From Candidatus Wolfebacteria bacterium RIFCSPLOWO2_01_FULL_47_17b (GTDB taxonomy: Bacteria; Patescibacteriota; Minisyncoccia; UBA6257; JAGOQP01), in the NCBI GenBank assembly GCA_001793865.1, contig MGIS01000023.1, forward strand, positions 1 to 57,831: a stretch of DNA of 57,831 nt, in the 5' to 3' direction. Under the pieces are notes generated by a model. That model did no database searches. It worked only from the letters and a program-made list of their open reading frames with translations, and was not told the DNA's origin. This document shows, in pieces, positions 1,296-50,450 of this stretch. How positions within the stretch are numbered: position 1 is the stretch's first letter; each line of letters opens with the position of its first letter. A program made the translations under genes and the position numbers.

Positions 1296-3176
1296 TTATT
1301 GCCGAATCCGTTTTTTGCTTTTGTATATGTACCAGCCGGTTCCGATAAGCACGAGCGCAAGGAACCACCACCAGATATTTCCTCCCTGGAACAGATCCAG
1401 GATAGTCGCGGTCTGCCGGCTGTTCTCTTCGCTTTCCTCCGGTGATTCCTGCGGCAATTCCTGCGGCGTGGGCGTAATGAGCGTTAATTCCTCGAACGAA
1501 GATGCCGCCGTCGGCGTCGGGTTTATTCCCGCACTCTGACTCTGCGCAACAAATAATACAGGGGAAGGCGTAAACAAGGCTGTTTGCGGTGTTTGGGATG
1601 GTTCGGGGCTTGGAGATGTCCGCGCTCTGCTCCCGCCGCTTGTCGTTCCTCGTCCCGAAGAATCGTCTTGCTCCGGAGATGGGGTTGGTGTGACGGCAGT
1701 AGAAGTAGACATTTCACCTCCCACTGTCTCGGGGGACGCGCTTGAAATGGCGCGGAAATAATACATGGTTCCTGACTCAAGGTCCGAGATCGCCACCGAG
1801 TGACTGATCACTTTCGGATCCACGTCTGCTTCGTCGGTTGAAAATGGATATCCGTAGTTCGGAGATTCGCCCAGTTCTGCGTCTGAAATTGAACTGGTTC
1901 CGTATACGACGCGGCTTGTCGCGGGCTTGTCGGTCGTCCACGTGAACGTAAATCCGCTATCGGTGATTTCCGTGGTTTCTTCATCTGAAATCTGAACCTG
2001 ATTTCCTTCCGATTCCGCGTACACACTGCACTCTCCAGCCATATTGCAGTATTCAAACGCAATCCACTCCACGGAGCGGGCGACGTTGGAAACTCGCACT
2101 TCATCCAGAATACCGTCTAGCGGATATTGGTTCACCGGGTCATCTTCGTCACTGCTTCTCCCGAGCGCAAGCTTTGCAGATCCTGTTGCTATAGAAAATA
2201 TTTCATCCTTTGCCGCGTCCTCCTCTCCATTTATGAATAGTTTTTGAGCACTGCCATCGTACGTCCCGATAAGCAGATACCATTCATTAAGAGGGATGAC
2301 GTTTGCGCCGGACACATAGGGATCCAATCTGCCGCCTCCGAATAAATAAAATTTGGATACTCCCTCATCATTATGATAGAGCTGGAAAATCCGCTTGCCG
2401 CCTAAGTTATCCCTCCACATAAGAACTGACGCGGGGGAGACAAACGATCGGGTCATGGCGAATGCTTCAACCGTTATCTGGGCGGGCGTGTCGAGTCCAT
2501 CGCTGTTTTCCATCTGCACGCGGTCGCTTTCTTCCTCTCCCCCGAAGCTAAGCGCGTTTCCGAGCGCTCCTTGCACCAGGTCCGTGCTTGTGAGTGTCGC
2601 GGATCCTGTGCCGTCCACATCGTTATCCGTGGAATCTTCTATTGTTTCCATTGGGTCCTGATTCAAATGCCACACGCCAAGGTAATGCTCATCCCAGACA
2701 TCTGCGGGACTTTGATCATCTTCGGCATCGGGATTTCCGTAATACATCCAGATGTGGTCGGCATCGGAGTTCTTGTCTATCTGCGGAACCTTGACCCAGG
2801 TGGTTGAGATTCCCGTTTCGTCCCACAGTTCTATTTCGTAGGGCAATTGGGTCGCATTATCCGAATCAAGAAAACGAATGTCCTGGCCCTGATCCTGCGT
2901 GTCGTCGTATGAGATAAGTAAGCCGGTAAGCTGGACGAGTGCGGGAAAATTAATGAGATTTTCGTTTTGTGCCGTTTCGGTCGTATCAAAAGTGATCTTG
3001 ATGCGATGAGAAAAGGCATCATTCCACCAGGCGTTTGAGATGACCTCCTCGGTGTCAGCGGATTCGTGTACATTCGCTTGTGCGTAGTGCGGAAGCATAA
3101 AAAACGAGAAGGCTAGCGCAAACACAAGCAGAAGCGTTCCGACTTTTACGACAGCCGATGATGTTGTTTTTTTCAT
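1296..3176 (-). CDS. surface protein: signal/TM, DUF2341-like + LamG (concanavalin-like) module, FN3-like domain, P/S/T linker, C-terminal TM anchor
   Basis: 626 aa. N-terminal hydrophobic segment. WWNDAFSHRIKITFD...DIRFLDSDNATQLPYEIE...HIWMYYGN is DUF2341-type. FN3-like TFTWTTDKPATSRVVYG...MYYFRAIS. C-terminus ILDLFQGGNIWWWFLALVLIGTGWYIYKSKKRIRQ. Confidence 0.85.
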   Translation of the reverse strand: MKKTTSSAVVKVGTLLLVFALAFSFFMLPHYAQANVHESADTEEVISNAWWNDAFSHRIKITFDTTETAQNENLINFPALVQLTGLLISYDDTQDQGQDIRFLDSDNATQLPYEIELWDETGISTTWVKVPQIDKNSDADHIWMYYGNPDAEDDQSPADVWDEHYLGVWHLNQDPMETIEDSTDNDVDGTGSATLTSTDLVQGALGNALSFGGEEESDRVQMENSDGLDTPAQITVEAFAMTRSFVSPASVLMWRDNLGGKRIFQLYHNDEGVSKFYLFGGGRLDPYVSGANVIPLNEWYLLIGTYDGSAQKLFINGEEDAAKDEIFSIATGSAKLALGRSSDEDDPVNQYPLDGILDEVRVSNVARSVEWIAFEYCNMAGECSVYAESEGNQVQISDEETTEITDSGFTFTWTTDKPATSRVVYGTSSISDAELGESPNYGYPFSTDEADVDPKVISHSVAISDLESGTMYYFRAISSASPETVGGEMSTSTAVTPTPSPEQDDSSGRGTTSGGSRARTSPSPEPSQTPQTALFTPSPVLFVAQSQSAGINPTPTAASSFEELTLITPTPQELPQESPEESEENSRQTATILDLFQGGNIWWWFLALVLIGTGWYIYKSKKRIRQ

Positions 3177-3895: not shown

Positions 3896-6800
3896 TTAAT
3901 TCTGTGCCCAGTACGACATAAACAAGGCGAAATCGTATTTATCTACTGTCAGGTCATTATTGATGTCCGAGCCGTTCGATCCGGCCGATCCCCACTGCGC
4001 CATAAGCAGGGCAAAGTCATATTTATCCACGGTGCCATCCTTATTTAGGTCGCCAGGAAGAGCAGTGATTGCGTTACTGCCGCCTCCGATGCTACCTCCA
4101 CCTCCACCGGTAGATTGGGATGGTCCAGTATCGGCTACAACGGCGAAAGTCCGGGATACACTTTCCGCATTTTTATAATCGTCGTCGCCCTCTTGGCTGG
4201 CGATAATCGTACATGCGCCTGCTCCCAGAATGTGGACGATGGAGGATCCACCTTCCCCGACAAGCTCGCAGATGCTTCCGTCTCCCACCGAATATACCAC
4301 CGGAAGTCCGGAGCTGGCATCTGCGTGCAACTCAAAATCGGGGTCGCCATATACTCTATCCTCCAATGGATTGAAATCAACGGTTTGATCCGCCTTGGTG
4401 ATAGTGAATATCGATCCGATAAAATCAATGTCATAATTAAGGTTGTCAAGCGTACCCTGCGTGATATCGTATGCACCCGCGTGCTCACCCGTTTCTCGAA
4501 CCAAAGAACCGAATAGTACATCATCCCCCATCAGCCCTCCTTCGCTTGTTATGCTGTATGAAAGTTCCGGATCAGGCGACTCTCCATACATTTTGCTTTT
4601 CTCGTCTGCTGTCACGGTGATTTCTGCCTTGTTAACGTAAAGTGTGGCGGTATTGGACCCGGCATAATTTACATCGGTAATCAACGCTGATACTTTATAT
4701 TCTCCGACGTTAACGGGAGGCGTTGTCAAGCCGTCGTAGAGAATTACAAACTCTAAGCCCTCGGGATTGGTTGCCGCAGAAACTGTGTGTTCGTTGCCGT
4801 CATACGTTGCGTGCAATTCTCCTTGGAGAGCGATGGCGGCAGCTTGGGGCGAAATATTTGCAGTGGTGCTTGTCGGCGGAACCAGAAGATTATAATTGTT
4901 TGCATCCGCGCCGGCAATGGAAATATCGGGCACATTAACGTTCTTATTGGCCCCAACTTCAGGATCGCCAAACGATGGGCTACCGGAAATAACATCAACA
5001 TCATCCCCCGCGAGTATGTCCTCGCTCCCCAATAACACCGTTGCGCTCGTGGTGCCGTCATATATCTTATTCCCTCCGGTAACCGTAACCCCAAGATTTT
5101 TTGGTGAGATAACAATATTCTCGTTTCCACTCGCGTTATGATAATTGCCGGTTATATCTATAAACGTCCAGTGGGCGGTGCCGCCGGGAACATCGGTAAA
5201 AGAATCTCCGGGATCAAATCCCGCCAATGATTCTTCCGCTATGCCCGTCGCTGCGCCCGTGGTGCCGTGCGGTGTTCCATCATAGACGCCGTTATAACCT
5301 TCAACCGCGATAGTTGCGCCGGCTTTATCTATAACATTGGAAATGACGCCATCATCATCGCTGTAGTTTGCCCCGCCCATAAATCTCCACGTATCGGAAT
5401 ACGTGCCGGCATTAGTGTGCGTGGTTCCGGAAAGATCGAGGTCTGCGCTTAAATCTTCGCCAAACGCCCCGTGGACGGTTCCCGCGGCCGTATGAGAACT
5501 TCCGTCATACACCAACGAGTAAGGGTTAATGGCAATATCGGCATCCGCTTTTTTAATCTCAAAACTGCCGACTGGTGCGTCATCAAGACTGTTGTAATTC
5601 GCCAAATCGTCTGGAATAAAATCAGCCGTAATAGCGTATACCCCCGCATCGGTCGGAATGGTCAAAGAGCCGCTGTATGTAACGTCACTGACGGTACCGG
5701 GGGTGGAACTTATTACTTCTGCGGACTGCGGAGAACCGTTATATGTTTTGTATTCGTTTTCCAGAGATAACACCGGATCGGCGGGAACCGATTCGCTGGG
5801 ATTATTCTCCGGAGCCTCATAACTTTGACATTCCCCCGCCATATTGCAGTACTCAAACGCGATCCATTCCGCAGAGCGGGCGATGTTTGAGATTCGAGAT
5901 TCATCAAGCGCCGCATTGGCATAGAACCCTCCGTTATTCTCATCGCTTGCCGCTCCAAGCGCAAGACGAACATTTCCGGTCTGTATGGCGAATGATTCAA
6001 CAACTTCATTCTGATCCTTCGATCCGTTTATATAAAACTTCATCGCATCCCCATCATACACGGCGGCAATCTGGTACCACGAGCCGAGGGATATTTCTTC
6101 ATCGCTTACAAGGATATGATCGATATCGCCCGCGTCCCGCAGATACCATCTTATATTTCCACCGCCGCCAAACCCCTGATACAATTGAAATATCCGTTTC
6201 GATCCGACAGCGGTATTGTCCCGCCACATAAAGACAGACGCATCATCCGGCCAATTTTGCAGGCGTACCCATGTCTCCAGCGTAATCTGATGGGAAGCGT
6301 CCAGAGCGGATGTATTTTGGGTCTGGAGCACATCATCAACACCATCAAAATCAATTGATCCGCCAAGAACACCATCTATCTGCTGACCGCTCGCCATAGC
6401 GCCGCCAGACAGAGCGTCCATCCCGTTATCGGTAGAATCTTCCATGGTAGCGCTAGGATCCTGGCTCATGTGCCACACGCCAAGGTAATTTTCGTTCCAT
6501 ACCGCTGCTGGCTGTTGCGCATCGGCCGCATCAGAGTTTCCATAATACATCCAGATATGGTCGGCGGTGGAATTGTGGTCTATCTGAGGAGCCTTGATCC
6601 AAGCAAGCGTCTCGGTATTCGTTTGCGTTTCGATTTCATATGGAAGGAGGGTTTGGTTATCGGAGTCAAGAAAACGAATATCCGATCCAAATTCACCCGA
6701 AGCGCGCACAAAATAGGGAAAATTAACAAGATCCTCAGTTGGTGCTGTTTGGGTTGTATCAAAAACGATTTTAACGCGGTTTTGCCACGATTCGTTCCAC

Positions 6801-8044
6801 CATTCGTCTGAATCGGGATTTGGGGACGGAGATGATGTGGGAGTTGGGGTTGGAGGCGCCTGCGGGGTTGGAGATGGCTCCGGAGACGGGCTGGGATTGC
6901 CTTCGGAGAGAAAATCAACTATTGCGTCCGCGATTCGAGTATGGGCATTGGAATCCGGGTGCACATCGCTTCCGCTGTATGCCGAATCGAACGTAACGCC
7001 TCCTGATATATTTTCAATATCCAGATATTCCCATGGATCTCCCGTCACGGCTGCGATGTTTTCTTGAATTTTTTCGTTGTATGGCCGTGCTGTCTCCGTA
7101 TCCAATTCCCCATTCGTTAAGCGAGGAGGAATGCTTATGCGAACGAGTCGAGCATCGGGGAATATGTCCCGTATGCTTTGTGCCATGTGCAGATCCGCCG
7201 CGGCAAATTCTTCAAGCGATTCTCCCGATTCGCCCACGTCGTTTGTCCCGTACATAACCAAAACCACATCCGGCTGTGGTGAAACGGAAGCGAGCGCCGC
7301 CAACCGCTCGTCGGAACTGCCTGGATAAACCCACACCTCCGCCACGTGCGAACCTCCAACACCTTGGTTTGAAACTGCGTAGCCAAGTTGTCTTGCCGCC
7401 TTGTGCGGAAAACCAAGCGTTATGTCATCAAAATGGCAACAGGTGATGCTGTCGCCGTATGCGAGCAATAACGGGCGGGACGCTATCGGAGAAGACGCAT
7501 CCAGTTCTCCGTTTTCCACGCGCAACTTAGCAATCTCCCACGTGCTGTTTTCGTCGTCTTTCCAGTCCACGACTTTTATGACAATTTCATGCGGCTCCGC
7601 GGATATGCCGTTTGCAACCTCCACCCATCCATATCCTCCGCCGCTTGGCGCGGTTACGACGGATCCATCTTCTCCATCAATGGTCGCCACAAACGCCGCC
7701 CCGTTCAACAGTACTTCCATTGAGATCGTTCCGCCGCCTGCGTATGTGAAATATCCTCGGACTGACTGCTCTATGTTTTTCGTGCCGGTGGGGAGTCCGT
7801 TCGCTTTCATTGCCGTAGACGTGCCGTACGGAATTTCTTCCCAGTTGTTGGCAGGACCTTCAAAACTGATATATGGCTCTACGCCGGGATCCGTTACGCT
7901 GTATTCAAACACCGCTTCCGCCGCCTTAATGTTATGTGAGATATTTTCGTCCGCATGCCCAAACCACACGTATATTCCCGCGAACAAAAGGACACACACG
8001 GGTATGAGGTAGTAATATTCTCTTTTTTTCATTCTGCTTCGCAT
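3896..8044 (-). CDS. 1382-aa multidomain surface protein: CBM-like + SGNH/GDSL hydrolase + DUF2341-LamG + YDG-type Ig-like (MBG-like) repeats + Big-like + C-terminal dockerin
   Basis: N-terminal signal anchor. GDSL blocks YGDSIT / GVGGS / YGTNDV / DVHPD. P/T/S linker. WWNESWQNRVKIVFD...DIRFLDSDNQTLLPYEIE. Repeated YDG(S/T)..H/T motifs. Alternative start MKK at 8032. Confidence 0.9.
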   Translation of the reverse strand: MRSRMKKREYYYLIPVCVLLFAGIYVWFGHADENISHNIKAAEAVFEYSVTDPGVEPYISFEGPANNWEEIPYGTSTAMKANGLPTGTKNIEQSVRGYFTYAGGGTISMEVLLNGAAFVATIDGEDGSVVTAPSGGGYGWVEVANGISAEPHEIVIKVVDWKDDENSTWEIAKLRVENGELDASSPIASRPLLLAYGDSITCCHFDDITLGFPHKAARQLGYAVSNQGVGGSHVAEVWVYPGSSDERLAALASVSPQPDVVLVMYGTNDVGESGESLEEFAAADLHMAQSIRDIFPDARLVRISIPPRLTNGELDTETARPYNEKIQENIAAVTGDPWEYLDIENISGGVTFDSAYSGSDVHPDSNAHTRIADAIVDFLSEGNPSPSPEPSPTPQAPPTPTPTSSPSPNPDSDEWWNESWQNRVKIVFDTTQTAPTEDLVNFPYFVRASGEFGSDIRFLDSDNQTLLPYEIETQTNTETLAWIKAPQIDHNSTADHIWMYYGNSDAADAQQPAAVWNENYLGVWHMSQDPSATMEDSTDNGMDALSGGAMASGQQIDGVLGGSIDFDGVDDVLQTQNTSALDASHQITLETWVRLQNWPDDASVFMWRDNTAVGSKRIFQLYQGFGGGGNIRWYLRDAGDIDHILVSDEEISLGSWYQIAAVYDGDAMKFYINGSKDQNEVVESFAIQTGNVRLALGAASDENNGGFYANAALDESRISNIARSAEWIAFEYCNMAGECQSYEAPENNPSESVPADPVLSLENEYKTYNGSPQSAEVISSTPGTVSDVTYSGSLTIPTDAGVYAITADFIPDDLANYNSLDDAPVGSFEIKKADADIAINPYSLVYDGSSHTAAGTVHGAFGEDLSADLDLSGTTHTNAGTYSDTWRFMGGANYSDDDGVISNVIDKAGATIAVEGYNGVYDGTPHGTTGAATGIAEESLAGFDPGDSFTDVPGGTAHWTFIDITGNYHNASGNENIVISPKNLGVTVTGGNKIYDGTTSATVLLGSEDILAGDDVDVISGSPSFGDPEVGANKNVNVPDISIAGADANNYNLLVPPTSTTANISPQAAAIALQGELHATYDGNEHTVSAATNPEGLEFVILYDGLTTPPVNVGEYKVSALITDVNYAGSNTATLYVNKAEITVTADEKSKMYGESPDPELSYSITSEGGLMGDDVLFGSLVRETGEHAGAYDITQGTLDNLNYDIDFIGSIFTITKADQTVDFNPLEDRVYGDPDFELHADASSGLPVVYSVGDGSICELVGEGGSSIVHILGAGACTIIASQEGDDDYKNAESVSRTFAVVADTGPSQSTGGGGGSIGGGSNAITALPGDLNKDGTVDKYDFALLMAQWGSAGSNGSDINNDLTVDKYDFALFMSYWAQN
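3899..4063 (-). other. type-I-like dockerin module (C-terminus of the 1382-aa protein)
   Basis: Duplicated Ca-binding segments GDLNKDGTVDKYDFALLMAQWG and SDINNDLTVDKYDFALFMSYW. Confidence 0.7.
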
Positions 8045-10744: not shown

Positions 10745-11323
10745 TTAGACAAGTGTCCTATCAAATTCAAACAATTCGGAATTTCGAATAAGGATTGTTT
10801 TGTTTGTAGTAAACGTCATGCCTTTGTTTGGCTGCGCTTCAAAACCAAGATATATACAGCTGATACCCCTGTTCCGAACCTCTTTTATGGCTGGCTGTAA
10901 ATCGGAGTCCGAACTGCCGAGAATAATTTCTTTTACCGTCCCGTCGCACGCCATAGTAACCATATCCACGGCAATGCGCACGTCAACACCTTTTTCCTTA
11001 AAGATTAGACTCTTATGTTTTTCATCAACGTATCCCCTTACTCTGCCGCTCAAAATAACTTCAAATCCTTGCGACTCGAGGCGTGTTTTCAATAACCGCT
11101 GTTCTTCGATAAGTTGTTTGGATTTTTCTTTACTTTCGGTGTGTTCTGTCACACGAGCAAAATAAAATACTTTTTTATCCATCCGCATTCCTGAAAGAAT
11201 CTTATTAAAAAGTCCCAGGAAATCATACGCGTGCCAAATGGGCCTCTTTTTATCAGCTTCATGAAATACACTCTTAATTTTCCCTTTTAAGTTTTCACCG
11301 TCAATTAGAAGAATTCTCTCCAT
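10745..11323 (-). CDS. NYN-domain (LabA-like) predicted RNase
   Basis: 192 aa. LIDGENL..., KGVDVRIAVDM, ILGSSDSDLQPAIKEVRNRG are typical NYN/LabA acidic motifs. Confidence 0.8.
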   Translation of the reverse strand: MERILLIDGENLKGKIKSVFHEADKKRPIWHAYDFLGLFNKILSGMRMDKKVFYFARVTEHTESKEKSKQLIEEQRLLKTRLESQGFEVILSGRVRGYVDEKHKSLIFKEKGVDVRIAVDMVTMACDGTVKEIILGSSDSDLQPAIKEVRNRGISCIYLGFEAQPNKGMTFTTNKTILIRNSELFEFDRTLV

Positions 11324-25668: not shown

Positions 25669-25829
25669 ATCCCATCGGGAATCTCACAACTTCGTTTCAC
25701 GAAGTTTTCAAAACCCTCGGTTTTGAATAATTTCCTACACGAAAACTTACAAAGTTTTCGACCTTTCAAGATTCGAATCCCGAGGAATCATACAAAACAA
25801 AATCCGCCATAAAGGCGGATTTTGTTTTG
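25669..25829 (-). ncRNA. tRNA-3'-appended structured module, copy D (after tRNA-Glu)
   Basis: Block-wise homologous to 41047-41207. Identical 22-nt hairpin attcaaaaccgagggttttgaa (25707-25728). Ends gtgagattcccgatggg, repeating the tRNA-Glu 3' end. Unclassified. Confidence 0.5.
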
Positions 25830-25904
25830 TGACCCCATCGGGATTCGAACCCGAGTTCCAGGAATGAGAATCCTGTGTCCTAGACCGGACTAGACGATAG
25901 GGCC
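25830..25904 (-). tRNA. tRNA-Glu(CTC)
   Basis: ggcccta tc gtc tagtccggtctag gac a cagga ttCTCat tcctg gaac tcggg ttcgaat cccga tggggtc a. Confidence 0.88.
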
Positions 25905-34485: not shown

Positions 34486-37400
34486 TTACGTTCTCAATAC
34501 GTCAACCTGCGCTTCCTCCGCTTCCCTGCGGTCCTTTCTGAAAAATATCCAGAAAAGAAGGAAGAGTACGGCGAGAAGAAGTAGTAAGCTGAACCACCAG
34601 AATCCGAAGAGTGCCCTGAACGCATCCAGGATGGTTGCGGTCAGCGTGCGTCCTGAGGTCACATCCGCGGTTAGATACGCGCTGATGGATTGCGGGCGGT
34701 CGCGGTCATCCTCGAAGTTGAGTATTGCGCTGAAGATGAGCACATCTCCCTTACTGGCAGAATTTGCCACCTTTGCGTTGATCGTGATCTCGGTTTCCGC
34801 GTCCTGCGGAATAGTGCCGAGTTCGTACGTGATGCTGTTCTGCTCGCGATCCGCCACCGGGTAGTTTGAAGAATCATATGCAACTTCCGTAGGCAAGATG
34901 ATCTTTAGGTACGCGTTGGAAAGATCGTAGTTGCAATCATTGCGATAGGTTATCGTGTACACAAACTCCTGACCCGCGGCGAGCTGATTGTTATCAAGCG
35001 TCGGCACCAGAAGCGCGCATGAAGCGCCGGATCCGAATGAGGTCGTTACCACAGTCGGAATTCCTCCTCCAGACGGGATTGTGCCTGCTCCGGTCGTCCG
35101 TACAACATAGATAATGCCCTGCGCCTTGCCGTAGCGGTTTTCACCGACAACACGGAAGAAATAGATCGTATTTGGAACAAGCCCTGTTATCGCGTGCGAT
35201 ATCTGCGCGGCTCGCGTGCCCGAACCGATTGGCTGTTCGAATGTTTTTGATCCAAGCGCCGCTGTGCGGCCGTATTCGAACCATGCCGTTGCCGGTTCGC
35301 CGTTCGGATTTACCGTGCCGTTCAAGAGTGCCGCATTCTGTGAAATGTTGGTCGCGAGCAGTGTTTGCACGATCGGTGCGCGCGCTCCCGAACCGAATGT
35401 GTTGAAGTCGAGTATTTCGCCTTCACCTGACGCGGTTCTGGTCTTTGCGACCGCGCGTACATAGTAGGTCGTACCGGGCCGCAAATCATCCACTTCAATC
35501 GAGAAGTCCACCAGGTCGCCTCCCTCGTACGTTTTTTCCTCCGTTTTCTGTGAAAGGTCGTCTTCCGAAGTGCCGTATTCAAACCATACGGTCGGATCGG
35601 ACACTCTGGAACGAACTGCCCCATAGAAGATAGCGGACGTGGAATTAATCACGGAAACGTTTTCGGTGCGGATGATCAGGCGTGAACCACCTCCGCCGCC
35701 CCCTCCACCGCCGATGCTCTCGTCATCATCGCCCTGTCCGGTAGTAAAGCTCAGAATCGCTCCTTGATCGGTGCCGAGTTCGTTGGATGCCGTAACACGG
35801 AAGTAATAGGTGGTGTTGTCGCTCAAGCCGCTGATCGGCACTGACACGTCTATTGCACTGGTGCCGGATCCCACCGAAGACACGGTTGTGTTCTGGAACG
35901 TATCGAATGTTGCGGATGTGCCGTACTGGAAACGATAGGATGTCGAAATGCCGTTCGGATCAACTGCACCATGCAGGCGAGCAGATGTCTTGGTGATGTC
36001 CGTCGCGTCCTGAGTCGTTGCATCCGGTGCGCTTCCCCCGCCGCCATTCCCATCGTCATTGGTTATAAACGTCAGGATGGCTCCGAATGATTTGCCGCGC
36101 TCGTTTTGCGCCACAATACGGAAGTAATAGCGGGTATCGGGGTTCAAGCCCGTAATAACAGATTCCACATCGCGCGCCACGAGACTCACGTCTTGTGTAG
36201 GCGTAACCGATGTAAGATTCGTTGATTGCGTTCCGTACTCAAACCAATAGCTTGCGCTGAATCCGTTTCCGTCTACATACCCCCTGAGTTGCGCGCTTGT
36301 ATGTGTAATCTCATGTGCCGGGTTTGTCTTGACCATCGGCAATCCACCTGGCTGATCTCCGGTAGTAAAGCTCAGAATCGCTCCTTGATCGGTGCCAAGT
36401 TCGTTGGATGCCGTCACACGGAAGTAATAGGTGCTATTGCCTGTAAGCCCCGAAATGGTGGCCGACACGTTGAACGCACCATCTTGCGATCCTGCCGAAG
36501 ATGCCGCCGTTCTTTGGAATGTTTCCAATGTAGGCGATGTTCCGTACTGGAATTGATAACCAGTCGAAAGTCCGTTTGGATCAACCTGCCCATTCAGGCG
36601 GGACGATGTCTGCGAGATGTTGGTCGCGGCAAGTGTCGTGGCTTTTGGAGCCGCTCCTTTGCCATCGTCTCCACCGTCTTTCTGGGTCGTAAAGGTGAAT
36701 ACGGAGCCGAATGATTTGCCCATTTCGTTCTGCGCGGCTACTCGGAAGTAGTAGGTTGTGTTAGGCGTCAGACCGGTAATAAATGCTGTGACATCTCCTG
36801 CTCCGGTTCCGATTGACTGGCTCGGCGTAAGTGAAGTCAAAGAAGTCTTTGCTGTGCCGTACTCAAACCAGTAGGTTGTACTGAGGCCGTTTGCATCCAC
36901 ATGCCCATTGAGTACCGCCCGAGTCTGCAATATATCTGTTGCCGGAGTTGTTTTGACGATTGGAGAACCTCCTCCCTGAATTGAAACTGTCTTGAAGCTC
37001 AAAATGTCTCCACGTACGGATCCCAGTTCGTTACTTGCAACAATGCGGAAATAATAAGTCGTGTCCGATTTCAATCCCGAAACAACCGAAGACACCGCTA
37101 CAGCTCCGTCTCCCGATCCAGCTGACACCAGCGGAAGCGAGATATGCGTAGCCAGCGTCGGCGAGGTGCCGTACTGGAAAGTATAAGTGGTCGAAATCGC
37201 GTTCGGATCAACTATTCCATTGAGTCGCCCTGCCGAAGTAGTTATATTCGTCGCGTGGCGTGTTTCAACAAACGGCGCGTTTCCATTGCCACCATTTTCA
37301 TCTTTGCCTGTCGTGAACATCAGCACTGAACCGAACGATTTTCCTTTCTCGTTCTGTGCCGCTACGCGGAAATAGTATGTGGTATTCGGTGTGAGTCCGC

Positions 37401-38931
37401 TCATGATTGCGTCTACGTCCCCTGCTCCGGTACCGATTGACTGACTCGGTGTAAGTGAGGTCAAGGAAAGCTTAGATGTGCCGTACTCAAACCAATAGGT
37501 AGTGTTGAAACCGTTTGGGTTGACCGAGCCATTGAGCGTCGCCTGCGCATGCGTAACGCCTGTCGCTTGCTTCGTCTGTACAATCGGCGAACCGCCCTGC
37601 GGTATTTCAAGTGTCTTAAAGCTCAGGATTGAACCCTGGTCGGTTCCGAGTTCGTTTGAAGCTGTGACACGGAAATAATAAGTCGTGTTGGACGTAAGTC
37701 CCGTAACGGGAGCTGAAACGCCCACGAGTAATTCACCTGACCCCGCGGAAGATATCGTTGCGCTCTGGAACGTGGCCAATGTCGGCGAGGTTCCATACTG
37801 GAAACGATAAGTCGTAGAAAGCCCGTTTGGATTAACCGATCCTTGTAAGCGCGCGGAATTGGTCGTTATCTGCGTTGCCGGATTGGTTAACGCGTTAGGT
37901 CCGCTTCCGCTGCCATCACCAACTGACTTTGTCTTGAATGAAAGTACTGAACCAAAAGACTTTCCGTGCTCATTTTGTGCCGCGATGCGGAAATAGTAAG
38001 TAACGTTCGGCTTCAGGCCGCTGATTGCCGCTTGTACGTCTTCTGCTCCGGTGCCGAGCGATTGACTCGAAGTAAGCGATGTAAGCGCGGTCTGCGACAT
38101 ACCATATTCAAACCAGTAGGTTGTTGCGGATCCCTTCGGGTCCACATAGCCATTAAGCTTTGCGCTTGCGTTCGAGATGCTCGTTGCGGCACGTGTTTCA
38201 ACAGCGGGTTTATTGTCCACTGGTTTTTTAGCCGCGACAAATTTAAACACCGAAACAAGCTGTCCAACCTGTAATTCACTCGGAGGTCCCACAACCGTTC
38301 CAAGATTTATTCCTTGTGAACTTGTGATAGTCGATCCGTCTTGGCCATTTGGCAACGGGTCTGGATTGTCTATATCATATCCGGGATACCATTTGGTGTA
38401 TTGAAACTGCAGTTCCCACGAACCGCTCGGCTGCTCTTCTACCGTAAGAGATGCGTCTCCGTACACTGCCGAGGCGTTATCCGCCCAGAGTTTTGCGGTT
38501 ATCTCCACTTTCTGCGAATTATAGTTGTAACGGATATCCGGAAGCGCGATTTTGGTATTGAGCGCGGATTCGTGCGAAGTATTGTGATAATACACATTAA
38601 AGCTGACAAGCTCACCGTCCTTGACCGGCTTTATTTTCTCCCAGCAGTTTTTATTGTCCGCTCCATCGCGTGTTATGTTGCAGGTGCGCAACGTAGGTTT
38701 GTCATTCGGATGATTGTTAAACACTGCGCCGCTGTCTGTTTCCTCTGGCGCTATGACTTTTCCTCCCGATCCACCTGATGTTTTCTTCGGCTGACTGATT
38801 GGAATTGCTTCCGAATCAGTGCCTATGCCGGGAACGCGCGCATCCGACGTGGATGCGAAAAATACGCCGTTTCCAGCTATCATACCGACCATGAGCAGCC
38901 CAATTACAATGTTTTTTGCTATATTTTTCAT
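34486..38931 (-). CDS. 1481-aa surface protein: signal peptide, N-terminal beta domain, ten FN3-like repeats, DUF11-like domain, C-terminal TM anchor
   Basis: Start MKNIAKNIVIGLLMVG at 38931 (track 38988). Repeats carry ..PNG..T.Y.F.YGT.....TYYFR..A.NE.G. C-terminus ILDAFRALFGFWWFSLLLLLAVLFLLFWIFFRKDRRE. Confidence 0.9.
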   Translation of the reverse strand: MKNIAKNIVIGLLMVGMIAGNGVFFASTSDARVPGIGTDSEAIPISQPKKTSGGSGGKVIAPEETDSGAVFNNHPNDKPTLRTCNITRDGADNKNCWEKIKPVKDGELVSFNVYYHNTSHESALNTKIALPDIRYNYNSQKVEITAKLWADNASAVYGDASLTVEEQPSGSWELQFQYTKWYPGYDIDNPDPLPNGQDGSTITSSQGINLGTVVGPPSELQVGQLVSVFKFVAAKKPVDNKPAVETRAATSISNASAKLNGYVDPKGSATTYWFEYGMSQTALTSLTSSQSLGTGAEDVQAAISGLKPNVTYYFRIAAQNEHGKSFGSVLSFKTKSVGDGSGSGPNALTNPATQITTNSARLQGSVNPNGLSTTYRFQYGTSPTLATFQSATISSAGSGELLVGVSAPVTGLTSNTTYYFRVTASNELGTDQGSILSFKTLEIPQGGSPIVQTKQATGVTHAQATLNGSVNPNGFNTTYWFEYGTSKLSLTSLTPSQSIGTGAGDVDAIMSGLTPNTTYYFRVAAQNEKGKSFGSVLMFTTGKDENGGNGNAPFVETRHATNITTSAGRLNGIVDPNAISTTYTFQYGTSPTLATHISLPLVSAGSGDGAVAVSSVVSGLKSDTTYYFRIVASNELGSVRGDILSFKTVSIQGGGSPIVKTTPATDILQTRAVLNGHVDANGLSTTYWFEYGTAKTSLTSLTPSQSIGTGAGDVTAFITGLTPNTTYYFRVAAQNEMGKSFGSVFTFTTQKDGGDDGKGAAPKATTLAATNISQTSSRLNGQVDPNGLSTGYQFQYGTSPTLETFQRTAASSAGSQDGAFNVSATISGLTGNSTYYFRVTASNELGTDQGAILSFTTGDQPGGLPMVKTNPAHEITHTSAQLRGYVDGNGFSASYWFEYGTQSTNLTSVTPTQDVSLVARDVESVITGLNPDTRYYFRIVAQNERGKSFGAILTFITNDDGNGGGGSAPDATTQDATDITKTSARLHGAVDPNGISTSYRFQYGTSATFDTFQNTTVSSVGSGTSAIDVSVPISGLSDNTTYYFRVTASNELGTDQGAILSFTTGQGDDDESIGGGGGGGGGSRLIIRTENVSVINSTSAIFYGAVRSRVSDPTVWFEYGTSEDDLSQKTEEKTYEGGDLVDFSIEVDDLRPGTTYYVRAVAKTRTASGEGEILDFNTFGSGARAPIVQTLLATNISQNAALLNGTVNPNGEPATAWFEYGRTAALGSKTFEQPIGSGTRAAQISHAITGLVPNTIYFFRVVGENRYGKAQGIIYVVRTTGAGTIPSGGGIPTVVTTSFGSGASCALLVPTLDNNQLAAGQEFVYTITYRNDCNYDLSNAYLKIILPTEVAYDSSNYPVADREQNSITYELGTIPQDAETEITINAKVANSASKGDVLIFSAILNFEDDRDRPQSISAYLTADVTSGRTLTATILDAFRALFGFWWFSLLLLLAVLFLLFWIFFRKDRREAEEAQVDVLRT
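35056..38205 (-). repeat. coding tandem array: ten ~103-aa FN3-like units with alternating A/B types (621-bp super-period)
   Basis: About 78 nt at 35737-35814 recur at 36358-36435 with 2-3 mismatches. A type has WFEYG..QNE.GKSFG; B type has FQYGTSPTL..ASNELGTDQG. Confidence 0.9.
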
Positions 38932-38978
38932 AGTATTGTTGTTTATATTGACGTACGCATAAAGCGCACAATTGCTAC

Positions 38979-39007
38979 AAGGTAGCATATTTACTGTTTC
39001 GTGTCAA
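38979..39007 (-). promoter_or_regulatory. promoter TTGACA-17-TACCTT abutting a hairpin
   Basis: Minus strand ttgaca (39002-39007), tacctt (38979-38984). Confidence 0.35.
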
Positions 39008-40318: not shown

Positions 40319-40945
40319 TCACTCCGCCGGTTGGCGGATCACCAACGGCACAAACCTAAAGCCAAAAAATTCTTTTTTGGTAAATTCCTGTTTGCCCGTT
40401 TTTTCCAGAAGCACAATCCGCTCATCCAACGGAGCCACGATTCGCCCGCCTATTGCTACCTGTTCTTGCCATGCGGCAGGTATTTCCTCCGCGGAGGCTC
40501 CCGCGATTATTTTATCGTAGGGGGCTTTTTCTTCATATCCTTTTGACCCGTCACTGTGTATAAACTCGATTCGTTGCGCAAGATTCGGATACACCGTGGC
40601 GTTTTGTTTCGCGAATTCATGCAGTTCGTGAATTCGTTCAATTGATACGACTTCACTTCCCGAAAGAAACGAGAGAAGTGCCGATTGCCAACCCGAACCG
40701 CTACCTATCTCAAGCACCCTATCCCCTGCACGCACCTGCAATAACTCCAACATAAAAGCAACCACAAGCGGCTGGGAGATGGTTTGTTCGAATCCAATGG
40801 GAAGTGGAATATTCTCATATGCGCGTTCTTTCATATCTGCCGATACAAAATGCTCCCGTGCTACGCTTAAAAACGCATCCTCCACGCGCGGCGTTTTTAT
40901 ATAGCCGAGTTTTATAAGCTCTTCCACCAGCTGTTCGTTTGTCAT
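40319..40945 (-). CDS. pcm: protein-L-isoaspartate O-methyltransferase
   Basis: Start MTNEQLVEEL at 40945 (the track start 41041 overlaps tRNA-Trp). VLEIGSGSGWQSALL SAM motif. Confidence 0.88.
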   Translation of the reverse strand: MTNEQLVEELIKLGYIKTPRVEDAFLSVAREHFVSADMKERAYENIPLPIGFEQTISQPLVVAFMLELLQVRAGDRVLEIGSGSGWQSALLSFLSGSEVVSIERIHELHEFAKQNATVYPNLAQRIEFIHSDGSKGYEEKAPYDKIIAGASAEEIPAAWQEQVAIGGRIVAPLDERIVLLEKTGKQEFTKKEFFGFRFVPLVIRQPAE

Positions 40946-40975
40946 ATAGTTCAATATATCATAGAATAAGGGCGT

Positions 40976-41046
40976 TGGGAGATTAGTTAAGTGGTATAAC
41001 GGGCGTCTCCAAAACGCCGGTCGGGGGTTCGATTCCCTCATCTCCC
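40976..41046 (+). tRNA. tRNA-Trp(CCA)
   Basis: gggagat ta gtta agtggta taac g ggcgt ctCCAaa acgcc ggtc ggggg ttcgatt ccctc atctccc g. Confidence 0.9.
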
Positions 41047-41207
41047 GCAGAGGATAAGGGAGTGTACGGAATCGAATCTTTGGGGGTCGGGGTATTTGTA
41101 AATACCCCGTGTAGGGATCCGCCGGATGGCGGAATTCAAAACCGAGGGTTTTGAACGAAGCTCCGCCAGCTGGTGGAGCGGAGGTGAGATTCCCTCATCT
41201 CCCGCAG
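41047..41207 (+). ncRNA. tRNA-3'-appended structured module, copy C (after tRNA-Trp)
   Basis: Four hairpins. Ends in an exact 21-nt repeat of the tRNA-Trp 3' end (41030-41050 = 41187-41207). Homologous to 25669-25829. Unclassified. Confidence 0.5.
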
Positions 41208-41237
41208 AAAAAATAACCCCATGGGGTTATTTTTTTG
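41207..41237. terminator. bidirectional terminator (tRNA-Trp unit / rpmG)
   Basis: aaaaaataacccc aat ggggttattttttt. The rpmG stop codon lies in the right arm. Confidence 0.75.
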
Positions 41238-41397
41238 CTTCGGTATGCTCGGTGTGTTTGCGGCACCATTTGCAATGCTTTTTAATGGTAAGCTTTCCTT
41301 CGCTTGTCTTCTTGTTCTTACGAGTGTAGTAATTAATCCGCTTACATACGTTGCACCGCATTTTTATGAGATTTTCGCTGAATTTGGATTTAGGCAT
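41227..41397 (-). CDS. rpmG: 50S ribosomal protein L33
   Basis: Not in track (56 aa). MPKSKFSENLIKMRCNVCKRINYYTRKNKKTSEGKLTIKKHCKWCRKHTEHTEAKK, with two CxxC pairs. Confidence 0.9.
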   Translation of the reverse strand: MPKSKFSENLIKMRCNVCKRINYYTRKNKKTSEGKLTIKKHCKWCRKHTEHTEAKK

Positions 41398-41451
41398 AGT
41401 TCAAATATGCAATACACAATATACAATAAACGGTCTGTTTGCAAGTTTATG

Positions 41452-41523
41452 AGCCGGAGGCGAGAATTGAACTCGCAGCCTTTTTCTTACCAAGAAAACG
41501 TTCTACCACTGAACTACTCCGGC
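41452..41523 (-). tRNA. tRNA-Thr(GGT)
   Basis: gccggag ta gttc agtggta gaac g ttttc ttGGTaa gaaaa aggct gcgag ttcaatt ctcgc ctccggc t. Confidence 0.88.
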
Positions 41524-41538
41524 ATATTGAATTTTTTG

Positions 41539-41611
41539 AGCCAGCGAAGGGATTCGAACCCCCGACCCGCGCTTTACAAAAGCGCTGCTCTACCAACTGA
41601 GCTACGCTGGC
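41539..41611 (-). tRNA. tRNA-Thr(TGT)
   Basis: gccagcg ta gctc agttggta gagc a gcgct ttTGTaa agcgc ... ttcgaat ... cgctggc t. Confidence 0.88.
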
Positions 41612-41617
41612 ATCATG

Positions 41618-41702
41618 TGGGTAGGGTGAGAGTCGAACTCACGCGAGCACAATGGCTAACGGTTTTACAGACCGGCCTCGGCCCCTACGAGACTACCTAC
41701 CC
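41618..41702 (-). tRNA. tRNA-Tyr(GTA), class II with long variable arm
   Basis: Acceptor gggtagg/cctaccc, anticodon loop ctGTAaa, T-arm gtgag ttcgact ctcac. I could not fold the D-arm cleanly by eye. Confidence 0.75.
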
Positions 41703-49635: not shown

Positions 49636-50328
49636 TTAACTTTTCTGGAAAGATTTTAATGCGTTTTTCGCGGCATCTACTTCCGCTTCCTGCTTGGATG
49701 TACCAGTGCCTTCGGCTATTTTTTTGTCTTTGAGAAACACTCCCACCACGAATTCTTTTTTATGATCCGGCCCCAGCTCCTTGAGCACCGAATACGTCGG
49801 CGTCACGCGAATCTTATCCTGCGCGATCTCCTGGAAGTAGCTTTTCGCGTCACGGTATGAATCGTTTGCTACAATGTCGTCAGCGAGCACCAGCACCTGC
49901 TCCACGATAAAGAATGCAACGGCATCGTAGCCGCCATCCATATACAGCGCGCCCAAAAGCGCTTCGAACGCGTTGGCGAGTATCACTTCGCGCGCTTTGC
50001 CGGTGTCTTTCATCTCCCCTTTTGATAGGAAGAGGTATTTTTCCAGCTGTACCTGCTGAGCGACTTTCGCGAGCGTTTGGTAGTTGACCAGCGCCGCACG
50101 GATGCTGGTCAGCTTTCCTTCCTGCATATCTGGGTATTTGTGATAGAGGTTTTCGGTTACGATGAGTTCCAGCACCGCATCTCCCAAGAATTCAAGCCGC
50201 TCGTTATGCGGCAGATGCCACGAAGGGTTCTCGTTTAAATATGAGCGATGTGTGAGCGCCTCCTGCAGAACGTCCTTGTTCTTGAAGGCATAGTGTATGC
50301 TTTGTTCAAATTCTTGTATCTGATCCAT
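49636..50328 (-). CDS. rnc: ribonuclease III
   Basis: Start MDQIQEFEQSI at 50328 (track 50415). HRSY..NERLEFLGDAVL. C-terminal dsRBD. Confidence 0.93.
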   Translation of the reverse strand: MDQIQEFEQSIHYAFKNKDVLQEALTHRSYLNENPSWHLPHNERLEFLGDAVLELIVTENLYHKYPDMQEGKLTSIRAALVNYQTLAKVAQQVQLEKYLFLSKGEMKDTGKAREVILANAFEALLGALYMDGGYDAVAFFIVEQVLVLADDIVANDSYRDAKSYFQEIAQDKIRVTPTYSVLKELGPDHKKEFVVGVFLKDKKIAEGTGTSKQEAEVDAAKNALKSFQKS

Positions 50329-50450
50329 GATTTTATATGTGTCTCGCGTGTGAATGGGAGTGGGTATGGATGCTTGTATGGTCTGCGGGTATAGGCAGAA
50401 GTTTGTGCCCATCAACTTTATACCCTACACCATCCTAGCTTCTATAACCC

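Follow-up and report, generated by a model that had tools for sequence, protein, structure and literature searches.

Several described systems offer points of comparison for the short DNA module considered here. MITEs such as Correia, RUP and BOX are non-coding, multi-copy, foldable stretches of ~100-200 bp; their terminal inverted repeats are fixed, and the target duplication they make is short and constant in length. REPINs/REP sequences with RAYT and the miniature derivatives of IS200/IS605 elements (PATEs) are likewise small, non-coding and hairpin-rich, lie near gene ends and, with one of their strands folded as single-stranded DNA, are mobilised by an enzyme whose gene lies elsewhere; they possess two similar ends, employ 4-nt guides and produce no target duplication. 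IS608 recognises its cleavage and target sequence by base pairing with a short internal guide, located 5' of a hairpin. tRNA-targeting integrative elements and CIMEs keep the gene intact by providing a second 3' end, with direct repeats that start in the T-loop. In the single-strand integration of CTX-phi by XerCD and at integron attC sites, the stem of a folded strand replaces a duplex site, with structure being kept as sequence varies. Finally, BoxC (PIT) of E. coli is a repeated, stand-alone 37-nt motif that is able to form a purine-motif triplex within one strand and has been linked to genome rearrangement (PMC4666352).

The segment that follows tRNA-Trp(CCA) in the window (i.e., the whole 57,831-nt stretch of DNA analysed) is one copy of a small, widespread and previously undescribed repeat of Patescibacteria (CPR bacteria); literature searches for an account of such an element returned none. 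Every copy shares the layout U–X–E1–rcX–CORE–X–E2, in which X is the end of the local gene, rcX is the reverse complement of X, abutting the 5' side of the core, and the core is a hairpin-rich stretch of ~85-110 nt. The parts of the copy at tRNA-Trp are as follows:

40939..40967, + strand: candidate sigma-70-like promoter (TTGTCA-17-TAGAAT) 5' of tRNA-Trp, proposed by match to the consensus only
40977..41048, + strand: tRNA-Trp(CCA), located by ARAGORN, the target gene (U plus X1)
41031..41051, + strand: X1, copy 1 of the 21-nt direct repeat, covering the tRNA from the T-loop onwards, up to its 3' end, and 4 nt of trailer
41052..41057, + strand: E1 spacer, GGATAA
41058..41076, + strand: rcX, GGGAGTGTACGGAATCGAA, diverged reverse complement of the tRNA-Trp 3' end and 5' strand of the closing stem, a pattern seen family-wide
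41077..41088, + strand: third-strand segment TCTTTGGGG and G-T-C turn, the putative reverse-Hoogsteen domain of a class I intrastrand triplex, proposed from mirror covariation across the family
41089..41108, + strand: hairpin 1, GGGGTAT / ATACCCC with loop TTGTAA
41109..41117, + strand: conserved junction GTGTAGGGA
41118..41133, + strand: optional extra hairpin TCCGCC-GGAT-GGCGGA, missing in the second window copy and in most relatives
41134..41155, + strand: hairpin 2, the nearly invariant 22-mer ATTCAAAACCGAGGGTTTTGAA
41156..41187, + strand: hairpin 3 (stem 41160-41179) and 3' junction GGAG-GTGA
41188..41208, + strand: X2, copy 2 of the 21-nt repeat, also serving as the 3' side of the closing stem
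41209..41237, + strand: hairpin and T-run, a bidirectional terminator shared with the convergent rpmG gene (stop codon 41227-41229)

The initial annotation of this locus had noted that the module ends in an exact 21-nt copy of the T-loop and acceptor 3' end of the tRNA. The repeat, gattccctcatctcccgcaga, is indeed identical in both copies, with its true sites (41031-41051 and 41188-41208) lying one base to the right of where it had been placed. The terminator hairpin reported directly 3' of the module was likewise confirmed. As this terminator also ends rpmG, X2-E2 represents the native continuation of the tRNA-Trp locus. Lying as it does between a promoter-like site and a terminator, the module is probably co-transcribed with the tRNA. 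Since the upstream tRNA is complete, there is no need to invoke a tRNA intron or a split tRNA.

A second copy, spanning ~25670-25790 on the opposite strand, was found downstream of tRNA-Glu(CTC):

25829..25904, - strand: tRNA-Glu(CTC), the target gene
25793..25828, - strand: E1, a 15-bp terminator-like hairpin separating the tRNA from the element
25772..25790, - strand: rcX, TGATTCCTCGGGATTCGAA, diverged reverse complement of the tRNA-Glu 3' end
25684..25771, - strand: core
25760-25771, - strand: third strand and turn of the core
25741-25759, - strand: hairpin 1
25729-25740, - strand: junction
25707-25728, - strand: hairpin 2
25688-25706, - strand: hairpin 3
25684-25687, - strand: GTGA
25670..25683, - strand: X2', GATTCCCGATGGGA

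The homology claimed between the two modules holds, with both matching a covariance model built from other genomes and both presenting the same blocks in the order described (tcgaatctt, ggtcg, hairpin 1, cgtgtagg, the 22-mer, hairpin 3 and gtgagattccc). The 22-mer, attcaaaaccgagggttttgaa, is identical in the two (two matches vs. 0.01 expected), and hairpins 1 and 3 keep their pairing despite the change in sequence, again as described. By way of correction, the second module is set apart from its tRNA by the 15-bp terminator-like hairpin, and decay has left only 10 nt of its direct repeat, with the match of X2' to the tRNA being left only in TCCCGATGGG (25671-25680, corresponding to tRNA positions 25834-25843). 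Absent from the initial annotation was the observation that the 5' ends of both modules are diverged reverse complements of the 3' ends of their tRNAs; in the two window copies, these rcX segments have decayed to 16 matches of 24.

To search for additional copies with a covariance model, as had been proposed, proved productive, yielding more than 100 in Patescibacteria MAGs. A 19-mer scan identified at least 119 loci, ~100 with a full core and all labelled Patescibacteria, while the covariance model gave 112 matches in 100 sources. In the 57,831-nt window, the model, built from other genomes, detected exactly two sites (58.6 bits, E 2.7e-14; 29.9 bits, E 1.8e-06) and no third copy. In agreement with the earlier statement that no described RNA family is involved, Rfam 15 at gathering score returned only tRNA and tmRNA matches in the window and 18 loci, and E-value scans (up to 10) of the tRNA-Trp module and of a typical copy (L108) gave chance-level matches far below gathering scores. 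ARAGORN placed no tRNA or tmRNA gene inside the modules, and a permuted tmRNA reached at best 9.6 bits, relative to a cut-off of 47. Self-cleaving ribozymes (hammerhead, twister, hairpin, HDV-like and hatchet) were considered by eye and with Rfam; the cores did not fit any of these.

Examination of the flanks revealed these to be derived from the target. Direct repeats of 10-53 nt start 0-1 nt past the 3' end of the core; in tRNAs they begin near position 57, within the T-loop, and reach or pass the 3' end, and in protein-encoding genes they begin among the final codons. The duplication of the gene end varies in length (10-80 nt) and is always present, with one core each. Because the terminal segment X-E is thereby present twice, the target gene stays intact, and because the start of X recurs in reverse complement directly 5' of the core, a locus-specific stem closes the core. 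Indeed, the flanking inverted repeat differs at each locus, where it equals the target sequence, and rcX changes along with the gene at the ribosomal S9 site. In 56 of 72 cases, rcX was closer in sequence to the upstream than to the downstream copy of X; the closing stem formed with the downstream copy scored 15.2, only a modest gain over the 11.5 of a cross-locus control. The duplicated gene ends are xenologous, presenting 8, 3 and 40 changes at codon positions 1, 2 and 3, respectively, with the stop codon being kept, and the terminators of the two copies of the gene end differ. A target-site duplication that subsequently decayed was rejected for the diverged cases, since 40 of 51 differences fall at third codon positions and stops are kept. 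Likewise, a TnpB- or CAST-type guide RNA (scaffold plus 3' guide) was rejected, as the second copy continues for up to ~80 nt as a diverged, translatable gene end.

The compensatory change read from the two window copies is real and is statistically upheld in more than 100 relatives. In hairpin 1, double changes were seen at all eight pairs and 97.7% of cells were paired, as compared to 85% in shuffles, with none of 500 shuffles being equally high. G.T outnumbered A.C by 20 to 5 in the hairpins, with G.T accounting for just 2.5% of cells; this excess indicates that the folding strand is the listed strand. DNA folding energies are alike on both strands. Moreover, the purine run 5' of hairpin 1 covaries with that hairpin in mirror symmetry (G:G, A:A, T:A), at 6.71 of 9 matches vs. 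5.08 +/- 0.14 in controls, in copies that are phylogenetically non-independent; mirror mutual information reached 0.4-0.7 at positions 3-8, the null maximum being ~0.25-0.29. The direct-repeat register, corresponding to alternative pairing, gave no signal; only the mirror register did. Judging from this covariation, the mirror code would correspond to a class I antiparallel purine-motif intrastrand triplex, with the strand order (reverse-Hoogsteen, purine, pyrimidine) and the G.G-C, A.A-T and T.A-T triplets of that class as defined by Holder et al. (2015; PMC4666352), who reported purine-motif triplexes to be unable to form in RNA. Of the earlier claim of a selected RNA structure, it is the compensatory change that stands; given the mirror covariation and the purine-motif code, the structure looks like one of DNA instead. 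Still, short purine-purine-pyrimidine triples are known in RNA, for instance in the tRNA D-stem, such that an RNA fold of the core could yet form.

As for targets, 55 of the 112 covariance-model matches lie within 200 nt downstream of a tRNA on the same strand, with none being found beside a tRNA on the opposite strand. Such strict co-orientation suits an RNA-level process as much as it does a replication-strand bias. In the 19-mer set, 49 of 98 copies are tRNA-linked, with 27 anticodons being represented among the tRNA-linked copies. The remaining targets include the ends of genes encoding S9 (six loci), EF-G and a protein of ~580 residues, as well as the start of pth, where one copy lies antisense to the 5' end of the gene. 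A hairpin and T-run separates the tRNA from the element in at least 29 of the 55 tRNA-linked copies, which argues against obligatory transcription, and no conserved promoter was seen for these copies.

Signs of mobility were also noted. Within one MAG, cores that are 100% identical over 56-58 nt occupy unrelated targets (tRNA-Glu in L068 and pth in L111); such cores also occur at two tRNAs within a single locus (L051) and across differently labelled MAGs. Gene conversion could account for identical cores at nearby loci, yet is less likely for L068 and L111, found on separate contigs. Several copies are present per genome, at unrelated genes. A metagenome scan revealed, in other genomes, one empty site, at a tRNA-Trp with an identical 3' half (L125, L126), and one site filled by a different element; in the same strain, no empty site was seen, with the copy at tRNA-Trp being present in all four near-identical contigs. 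Inserts with different cores and the same layout were encountered at tRNAs (L124, L040, L119, L051). No enzyme that would move the element was identified, and neither excised or circular molecules nor scars left by excision were observed.

Together, these observations are most readily accommodated by a Patescibacteria-specific, non-autonomous and horizontally spreading insertion element that folds as single-stranded DNA and whose flanks are copied by an enzyme encoded in trans, a reading to which we assign a probability of about 0.5. Rather than being an RNA gene, the module most likely works at the level of DNA, as the folded single strand of a mobile element. The mobile unit would be a core of ~85-110 nt that folds on one strand, namely the sense strand of the target gene, into a multi-helix junction, where a 5' purine strand would occupy the groove of hairpin 1 as an intrastrand purine-motif triplex, together with the invariant hairpin 2 and the variable hairpin 3, often with a GNA mini-hairpin. 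The folded species may be the lagging-strand template or incoming transforming DNA, for example. Insertion at a gene end would leave U-X-E1-rcX-core-X-E2; an enzyme encoded elsewhere would presumably copy the flanks from the target in the process, and filled sites may spread between lineages by homologous recombination via conserved flanking genes. Of the two readings offered by the initial annotation, that of a miniature non-autonomous element comes much closer to this proposal, with non-autonomy being upheld. Not upheld are specificity for tRNAs, about half of the copies lying at the ends of protein-encoding genes, and fixed att sites, the flanks being target-derived. It is tempting to go further and propose that the element represents a new class of mobile DNA in bacteria: a single-stranded core of ~90 nt, free of protein-coding sequence and with a triple-helix junction, whose insertion writes inverted and direct copies of the target, whose targeting relies on rcX-X base pairing rather than on the sequence preference of a protein, and which has spread across Patescibacteria on conserved genes by transformation and recombination; this broader suggestion is a tentative one, with the odds against it.

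Several insertion mechanisms were considered. Neither target-primed reverse transcription nor hairpin-capped breaks fit all copies, while fold-back priming at terminators fails where X and rcX lie 60-80 nt apart without a hairpin. IS608-like cleavage 3' of the guide-paired site predicts that rcX should best match the downstream copy, the opposite of what was observed.

The other reading, an ncRNA co-transcribed with the tRNA and ending in a tRNA-like 3' end, was weakened. In its broader form, the module would be a functional structured RNA that read-through from a tRNA, S9 or EF-G promoter produces at the 3' side of highly expressed genes. The rcX-X stem would then be a stalk for processing or protection, or else a minihelix resembling a tRNA and cleaved by RNase P, RNase Z or RNase III, and the core would be bound by a conserved protein. 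The strong covariation, the excess of G.T over A.C on the sense strand and the 55 to 0 co-orientation with tRNAs would all suit such an RNA, as would the placement of the tRNA-Trp copy within an apparent promoter-terminator unit, the presence of an RNase III gene in the window and the resemblance of the closing stem of tRNA-linked copies to acceptor and T stems. Circularly permuted variants also exist (L075, L092, L101), and circular permutation is typical of ribozyme-like junction motifs. However, the terminators that precede so many tRNA-linked copies, the lack of a conserved promoter among them and of any Rfam match, and the copy antisense to pth speak against such an RNA, as does the mirror covariation, purine-motif triplexes being no RNA motif (PMC4666352). 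Nor would an RNA explain multiple copies per genome at unrelated genes, identical cores at unrelated targets or gene-end duplications for which it has no obvious use, while rcX in both window copies has decayed as if free of selection. This account is, as such, unlikely.

A miniature tyrosine-integrase island (CIME-like), or a fused attL/attR scar, would employ a T-loop crossover and carry a replacement 3' end, the core being arm-type binding DNA. The direct repeats that run from near position 57 of the T-loop to or past the tRNA 3' end are of the type that T-loop-targeting integrases reportedly generate, and the replacement gene ends, their differing terminators and the same layout around other cores at tRNAs fit as well. 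Yet no integrase was detected in the window or at distances of up to ~4 kb from roughly 95 loci, no recombinase cluster emerged from 1,915 ORFs around 95 loci, where the neighbours are only housekeeping genes, and IMG/VR as well as phage and plasmid collections gave no match to the element. The larger, integrase-bearing relatives with the same termini, for which a search had been proposed, were accordingly not found in these collections or among the neighbouring ORFs. Dozens of unrelated targets for one core family exceed the specificity of a single integrase, the covarying hairpins and the mirror repeat suggest a single-stranded structure instead of duplex binding sites, and a duplex circle of 90-250 bp, very hard to form, would be needed, rendering an island or scar improbable. 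Also to be weighed is a SINE-like retroelement, in which core RNA made by read-through would be copied by a reverse transcriptase encoded elsewhere (by a group II intron, DGR or other), rcX would serve for primer binding or for pairing with the target, and the co-transcript would supply the duplicated gene end. Such an origin would account for location just downstream of highly expressed genes, sense-strand bias, the primer-binding-site-like complementarity of rcX to the tRNA 3' end and variable duplication length. It is, nonetheless, hard to reconcile with terminators that often lie upstream of the element, the copy antisense to pth, a triplex code that favours DNA and the lack of poly-A or another 3' signature; moreover, no retron, group II intron or DGR reverse transcriptase was found in the neighbourhoods of the loci or in the window. 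We consider a retroelement to be a poor candidate.

The genomes of Patescibacteria are tiny, and few mobile elements have been recognised in them. A repeat beside a sizeable share of tRNAs, as estimated from fetched loci in a sample biased to element-bearing sites, would be a main shaper of these genomes. The element is also a source of annotation errors, in the form of false tRNA fragments and duplicated gene ends, and a sensitive marker of DNA exchange among uncultivable lineages. The mirror covariation would rank among the clearest comparative evidence that natural selection maintains an intrastrand DNA triplex. Should the locus-specific stem determine where insertion occurs, the element would be a candidate simple programmable insertion system.

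In comparing the element with the systems introduced above, REPINs and PATEs are close in size, in position near gene ends and in the proposed movement of one folded strand by an enzyme encoded elsewhere, with one-strand hairpins and orientation bias being evident here from covariation, the G.T to A.C ratio (20 vs. 5) and the 55 to 0 co-orientation. Moreover, rcX is comparable to the IS608 guide. Unlike these, the element contains a single core instead of two related ends, its guide-like segment differs by locus and measures 8-30 nt, and the gene end is duplicated over 10-80 nt; no Y1/HUH gene was found at the loci or in the window. Like BoxC, it is a repeated bacterial DNA motif predicted to fold on one strand into a purine-motif triplex; BoxC, however, is of class II and comes without strand bias or covariation evidence, whereas the predicted triplex here is of class I, is supported by covariation, would make up a single arm of a junction that is larger and has flanks derived from the target, and shares no sequence similarity with BoxC. 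As in CIMEs, the direct repeats consist of the gene 3' end and start in the T-loop, keeping the gene intact, yet no cognate tyrosine or serine recombinase was found (95 loci, the window, and viral, phage and plasmid collections), the insert measures 100-250 bp, one core family has many unrelated targets and an extra inverted target copy is present. MITEs are similar in size, copy number and foldability, but carry fixed terminal inverted repeats and a short fixed-length duplication, in place of which the element has an inverted repeat made from the target and a long, variable duplication. Finally, as in CTX-phi and attC-type integration, which need replication to complete, insertion of the folded strand would also require replication; in those systems, the stems carry conserved recombinase-binding sequence (dif-like arms; the R''/R' boxes RYYYAAC / GTTRRRY), whereas the closing-stem sequences of the element are wholly locus-specific and unrelated between loci, with the conserved part lying beside the stem.

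The segment of approximately 160 nt that lies 3' of tRNA-Trp in the window (the Trp copy) terminates in an exact 21-nt direct repeat comprising the tRNA from the T-loop to the 3' end together with 4 nt of trailer. The repeat is as exact as the initial annotation had it, and its positions, placed there one base too far to the left, are 41031-41051 and 41188-41208. The relevant features of this site, and of the second site at tRNA-Glu (the Glu copy), are as follows.

40939-40967, promoter-like site upstream of the Trp copy
40977-41048, plus strand, tRNA-Trp(CCA), target of the Trp copy
41209-41237, hairpin and T-run directly 3' of the second repeat copy, also terminating the convergent rpmG
41227-41229, stop codon of the convergent gene rpmG
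25829-25904, minus strand, tRNA-Glu(CTC), target of the Glu copy

Because the hairpin at 41209-41237 also ends rpmG, the second copy of the repeat is continuous with native DNA. Sequence comparison bore out the proposal that the Glu segment contains the blocks of the Trp segment in the same order, with an identical 22-mer being shared (2 matches vs. 0.01 expected) and hairpins 1 and 3 differing in sequence between the copies with their pairing intact. Overlooked earlier were a 15-bp terminator-like hairpin separating the Glu copy from its tRNA, the decay of the Glu direct repeat to 10 nt, and the 5' end of each module, which is a diverged reverse complement of the tRNA 3' end. As such, each module is closed by a long stem. 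At 41180-41208 of the Trp copy, GGAGGTGAG of the element also pairs with CTCATCTCC of the repeated tRNA end in a 9-bp local hairpin when folded as DNA, which may be chance. Elsewhere in the window, a minus-strand cluster beside rpmG (41451-41702; tRNA-Thr(GGT), tRNA-Thr(TGT), and tRNA-Tyr(GTA)) contains no element, and very large surface proteins are predicted on the minus strand at 34486-38988, 3896-8044, and 1296-3176, one of 1500 aa with repeated units of ~90 aa and a C-terminal membrane anchor, and another of 1382 aa with GDSL lipase, laminin-G, MBG, YDG, and dockerin domains.

No Rfam family matched the module. Scanning a single genome of each species with a 19-mer from within hairpin 2 revealed at least 119 loci, with the whole core being present in about 100 of the matches listed, all of these in MAGs labelled Patescibacteria or CPR. 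The few matches in other phyla lacked the core and are chance. A covariance model trained on nine short copies, all from other genomes, detected precisely two sites in the window, namely the known copies (58.6 and 29.9 bits), and 112 sites in 100 sources overall, some with a different hairpin 2; several MAGs contained three to six copies each.

On the folding strand, all copies conform to the order U - X - E1 - rcX - CORE - X - E2 - D, where U is the upstream part of a gene, X and E together form its terminal part, and rcX, 8-30 nt long and abutting the 5' side of the core, is the reverse complement of the start of X. The second X begins 0-1 nt past the core 3' end, which reads ...GAGCGAC or, in many tRNA-linked copies, ...GTGAGATT; exact direct repeats range from 10 to 53 nt. 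A same-strand tRNA precedes 49 of the 98 copies in the 19-mer set, representing 27 anticodons, while 55 of the 112 model sites have a same-strand tRNA at most 200 nt upstream and no site adjoins a tRNA on the opposite strand. Where a copy is tRNA-linked, the start of its repeat lies in the T-loop, near position 57. The remaining copies adjoin protein genes, including the last codons of ribosomal protein S9 (six loci), EF-G, a protein of ~580 aa, and others, and one runs antisense to pth over its first 16 codons, the native promoter of this gene remaining beyond the second copy. With protein genes also among its targets, the element is not a tRNA appendage. In two fetched loci (L016:1-120 and L025:1057-1200), a same-strand tRNA gene begins immediately after the GCGACG of the core; the first copy is truncated by the edge of the locus, at its start, and hence not informative, while the second has no recognizable repeat or closing stem (rcX paired with X), such that the usual flanks may be missing from some copies.

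In agreement with the compensatory change initially claimed for hairpin 1, double changes were found at 8 of 8 pairs in a model-guided alignment, in which 97.7% of cells were paired vs. 85% upon shuffling (0 of 500 shuffles as high), although this alignment, being fitted to the model, somewhat favours structure. The same swaps are present in a MAFFT alignment, and pairing collapses in slid registers. G.T pairs outnumber A.C pairs by 20 to 5 (G.T occupying only 2.5% of cells), indicating the listed strand to be the folding strand. In the main set, hairpin 2 hardly varies, in part a product of the seed search having required it, and variants occur at three loci (L018, L021, and L043). Hairpin 3, flanked by GAGCGA...GAGCGAC, is of variable length and can be as short as GCGNAGC; d(GCGAAGC), with its GNA triloop, is a classic and very stable DNA mini-hairpin. 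Circularly permuted cores, whose ends fall in hairpin 1, were found at three loci.

L075:5650-5830, permuted core
L092:4741-4838, minus strand, permuted core
L101:2736-2853, permuted core

The conserved unit is thus a junction, not a linear string. All three come from a single MAG (C24_metabat.bin.172) and read pyrimidine strand, junction, hairpin 2, third strand, GTC, and purine strand, with ends lengthened by local pairing. At L023:1900-2200 and L037:2377-2700 (minus), several additional hairpins bring hairpin 1 to about 190 nt, and neither the junction nor hairpin 2 is altered.

A purine-rich run 5' of an invariant G-T-C turn, the third strand, mirrors the 5' strand of hairpin 1, as in AAAGGGG[GTC]GGGGAAA, AAGGAGGG[GTC]GGGAGGAA, and GAGGGGTGG[GTC]GGAGGGGAA. 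Across 77 distinct copies, the mirror register gave 6.71 of 9 matches vs. 5.08 +/- 0.14 when arms were re-paired among copies, and no direct-repeat register gave any signal. Mutual information reached 0.4-0.7 at positions 3-8 (null maximum about 0.25-0.29). The mirror pairs, G:G, A:A, and T:A, match the code of the antiparallel purine motif. Judging from this covariation, which is among copies related to one another, the third strand and hairpin 1 would form an intrastrand triplex in the order third strand - purine strand - pyrimidine strand, which is "class I" in the definition of Holder et al. (2015, PMC4666352).

Cores that are identical across 56-58 nt, including the loop, recur where neither targets nor flanks are related: on separate contigs of one MAG (L068 at tRNA-Glu and L111 at pth), at two tRNAs 400 nt apart (L051), and across differently labelled MAGs (L022, L071, L072, and L110). 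As such, the core is the moving unit and the flanks are target-derived. An empty site exists in another genome (L125 and L126), where tRNA-Trp has an identical 3' half, while in a third genome (L124) tRNA-Trp carries a different insert of ~130 nt in the same layout (27-nt repeat, rcX, other core). In the fetched DNA, the last 16 nt were duplicated downstream in 41 of 161 tRNAs, with this core accounting for 33, the hairpin 2 variants for three, unrelated cores for four, and a second tRNA-Ser gene alone for the remaining one (L082). The unrelated cores are given below.

L124:1500-1820, minus strand, insert with unrelated core
L040, insert with unrelated core at tRNA-Pro (tRNA at 5833-5904)
L119, insert with unrelated core at tRNA-Phe (tRNA at 5860-5932)
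L051, insert with unrelated core at tRNA-Val (tRNA at 5017-5090)

Such short inserts, of about 100-170 nt, share the order of gene end, hairpin, T-arm reverse complement, structured core, and repeat beginning in the T-loop, making the layout common to several element families. At L021:330-900 (minus) and L032:3700-4200 (minus), two elements stand in tandem, the second being degenerate and placed beyond the tRNA end and terminator regenerated at the first, as expected if a restored target can be struck again.

Where the two gene-end copies have diverged, codon positions 1, 2, and 3 account for 8, 3, and 40 of the differences, respectively, and reading frame and stop codon are retained in the displaced copy, such that both copies evolved as functional gene ends in different lineages. 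At 56 of 72 loci, rcX is a better match to the upstream than to the downstream copy, and at the S9 site it covaries with the gene (cccacaat/attgtggg, cccgcaat/attgcggg, and cagacaat/attgtctg). We infer that a new insertion would yield two identical gene-end copies, as in L108, L058, L083, and L116, and that recombination could then carry the filled site into related lineages. A pair of crossovers, the first within the gene and the second immediately to the right of the core, would leave the donor gene end and rcX on the upstream side, the downstream end being that of the recipient. This account would cover the above observations and would also explain why surviving copies lie beside very conserved genes.

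That the element is an RNA, one of the readings initially offered, would fit its sense-strand bias, the promoter-like site (40939-40967) and terminator flanking the Trp copy, and the resemblance of the closing stem in tRNA-linked copies to acceptor and T stems. However, a hairpin and T-run separates tRNA from element in at least 29 of the 55 tRNA-linked copies, and in more by eye, no conserved promoter was seen, and the pth copy is antisense to a gene start. Moreover, rcX has decayed in both window copies (16 of 24 matches in the Trp copy), as if selection were gone. The triplex code fits DNA, purine-motif triplexes being reportedly unable to form in RNA (Holder et al., 2015, PMC4666352). Folding energies are alike for both strands and do not separate them. 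For co-directional genes, the sense strand is the lagging-strand template, which could equally explain the tRNA co-orientation bias. An element acting at the DNA level, folding when its strand is single, is favoured over an RNA. The window also encodes RNase III and an NYN-domain nuclease (49636-50415 and 10745-11323, both minus), which would be candidates to cut the long closing stem were the element transcribed.

No recombinase, transposase, or reverse transcriptase was found in the window, none was enriched within about 4 kb of 95 loci, and no relatives appeared in IMG/VR, phage, or plasmid collections, pointing to a non-autonomous element. None of the insertion schemes considered accounts for all copies. 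Any mechanism has to accommodate a duplication whose left edge coincides with the core 3' end, an rcX complementary to that edge at a distance of 8-80 nt, and a variable right edge.

The element is rated a small non-autonomous mobile DNA, novel among such elements; that it constitutes a separate class of mobile DNA is less likely than not. REPINs and IS200/IS605 derivatives, with a folded single strand, a guide beside the hairpin, and a trans-acting enzyme, are closest in working principle, with CTX-phi and attC single-strand integration also being close in this respect. In layout, the nearest counterparts are tRNA-targeting integrative elements, in which the gene receives a replacement end, and the BoxC/PIT triplex motif is closest for one structural arm. 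At least one defining membership test of each family compared places the element outside that family.
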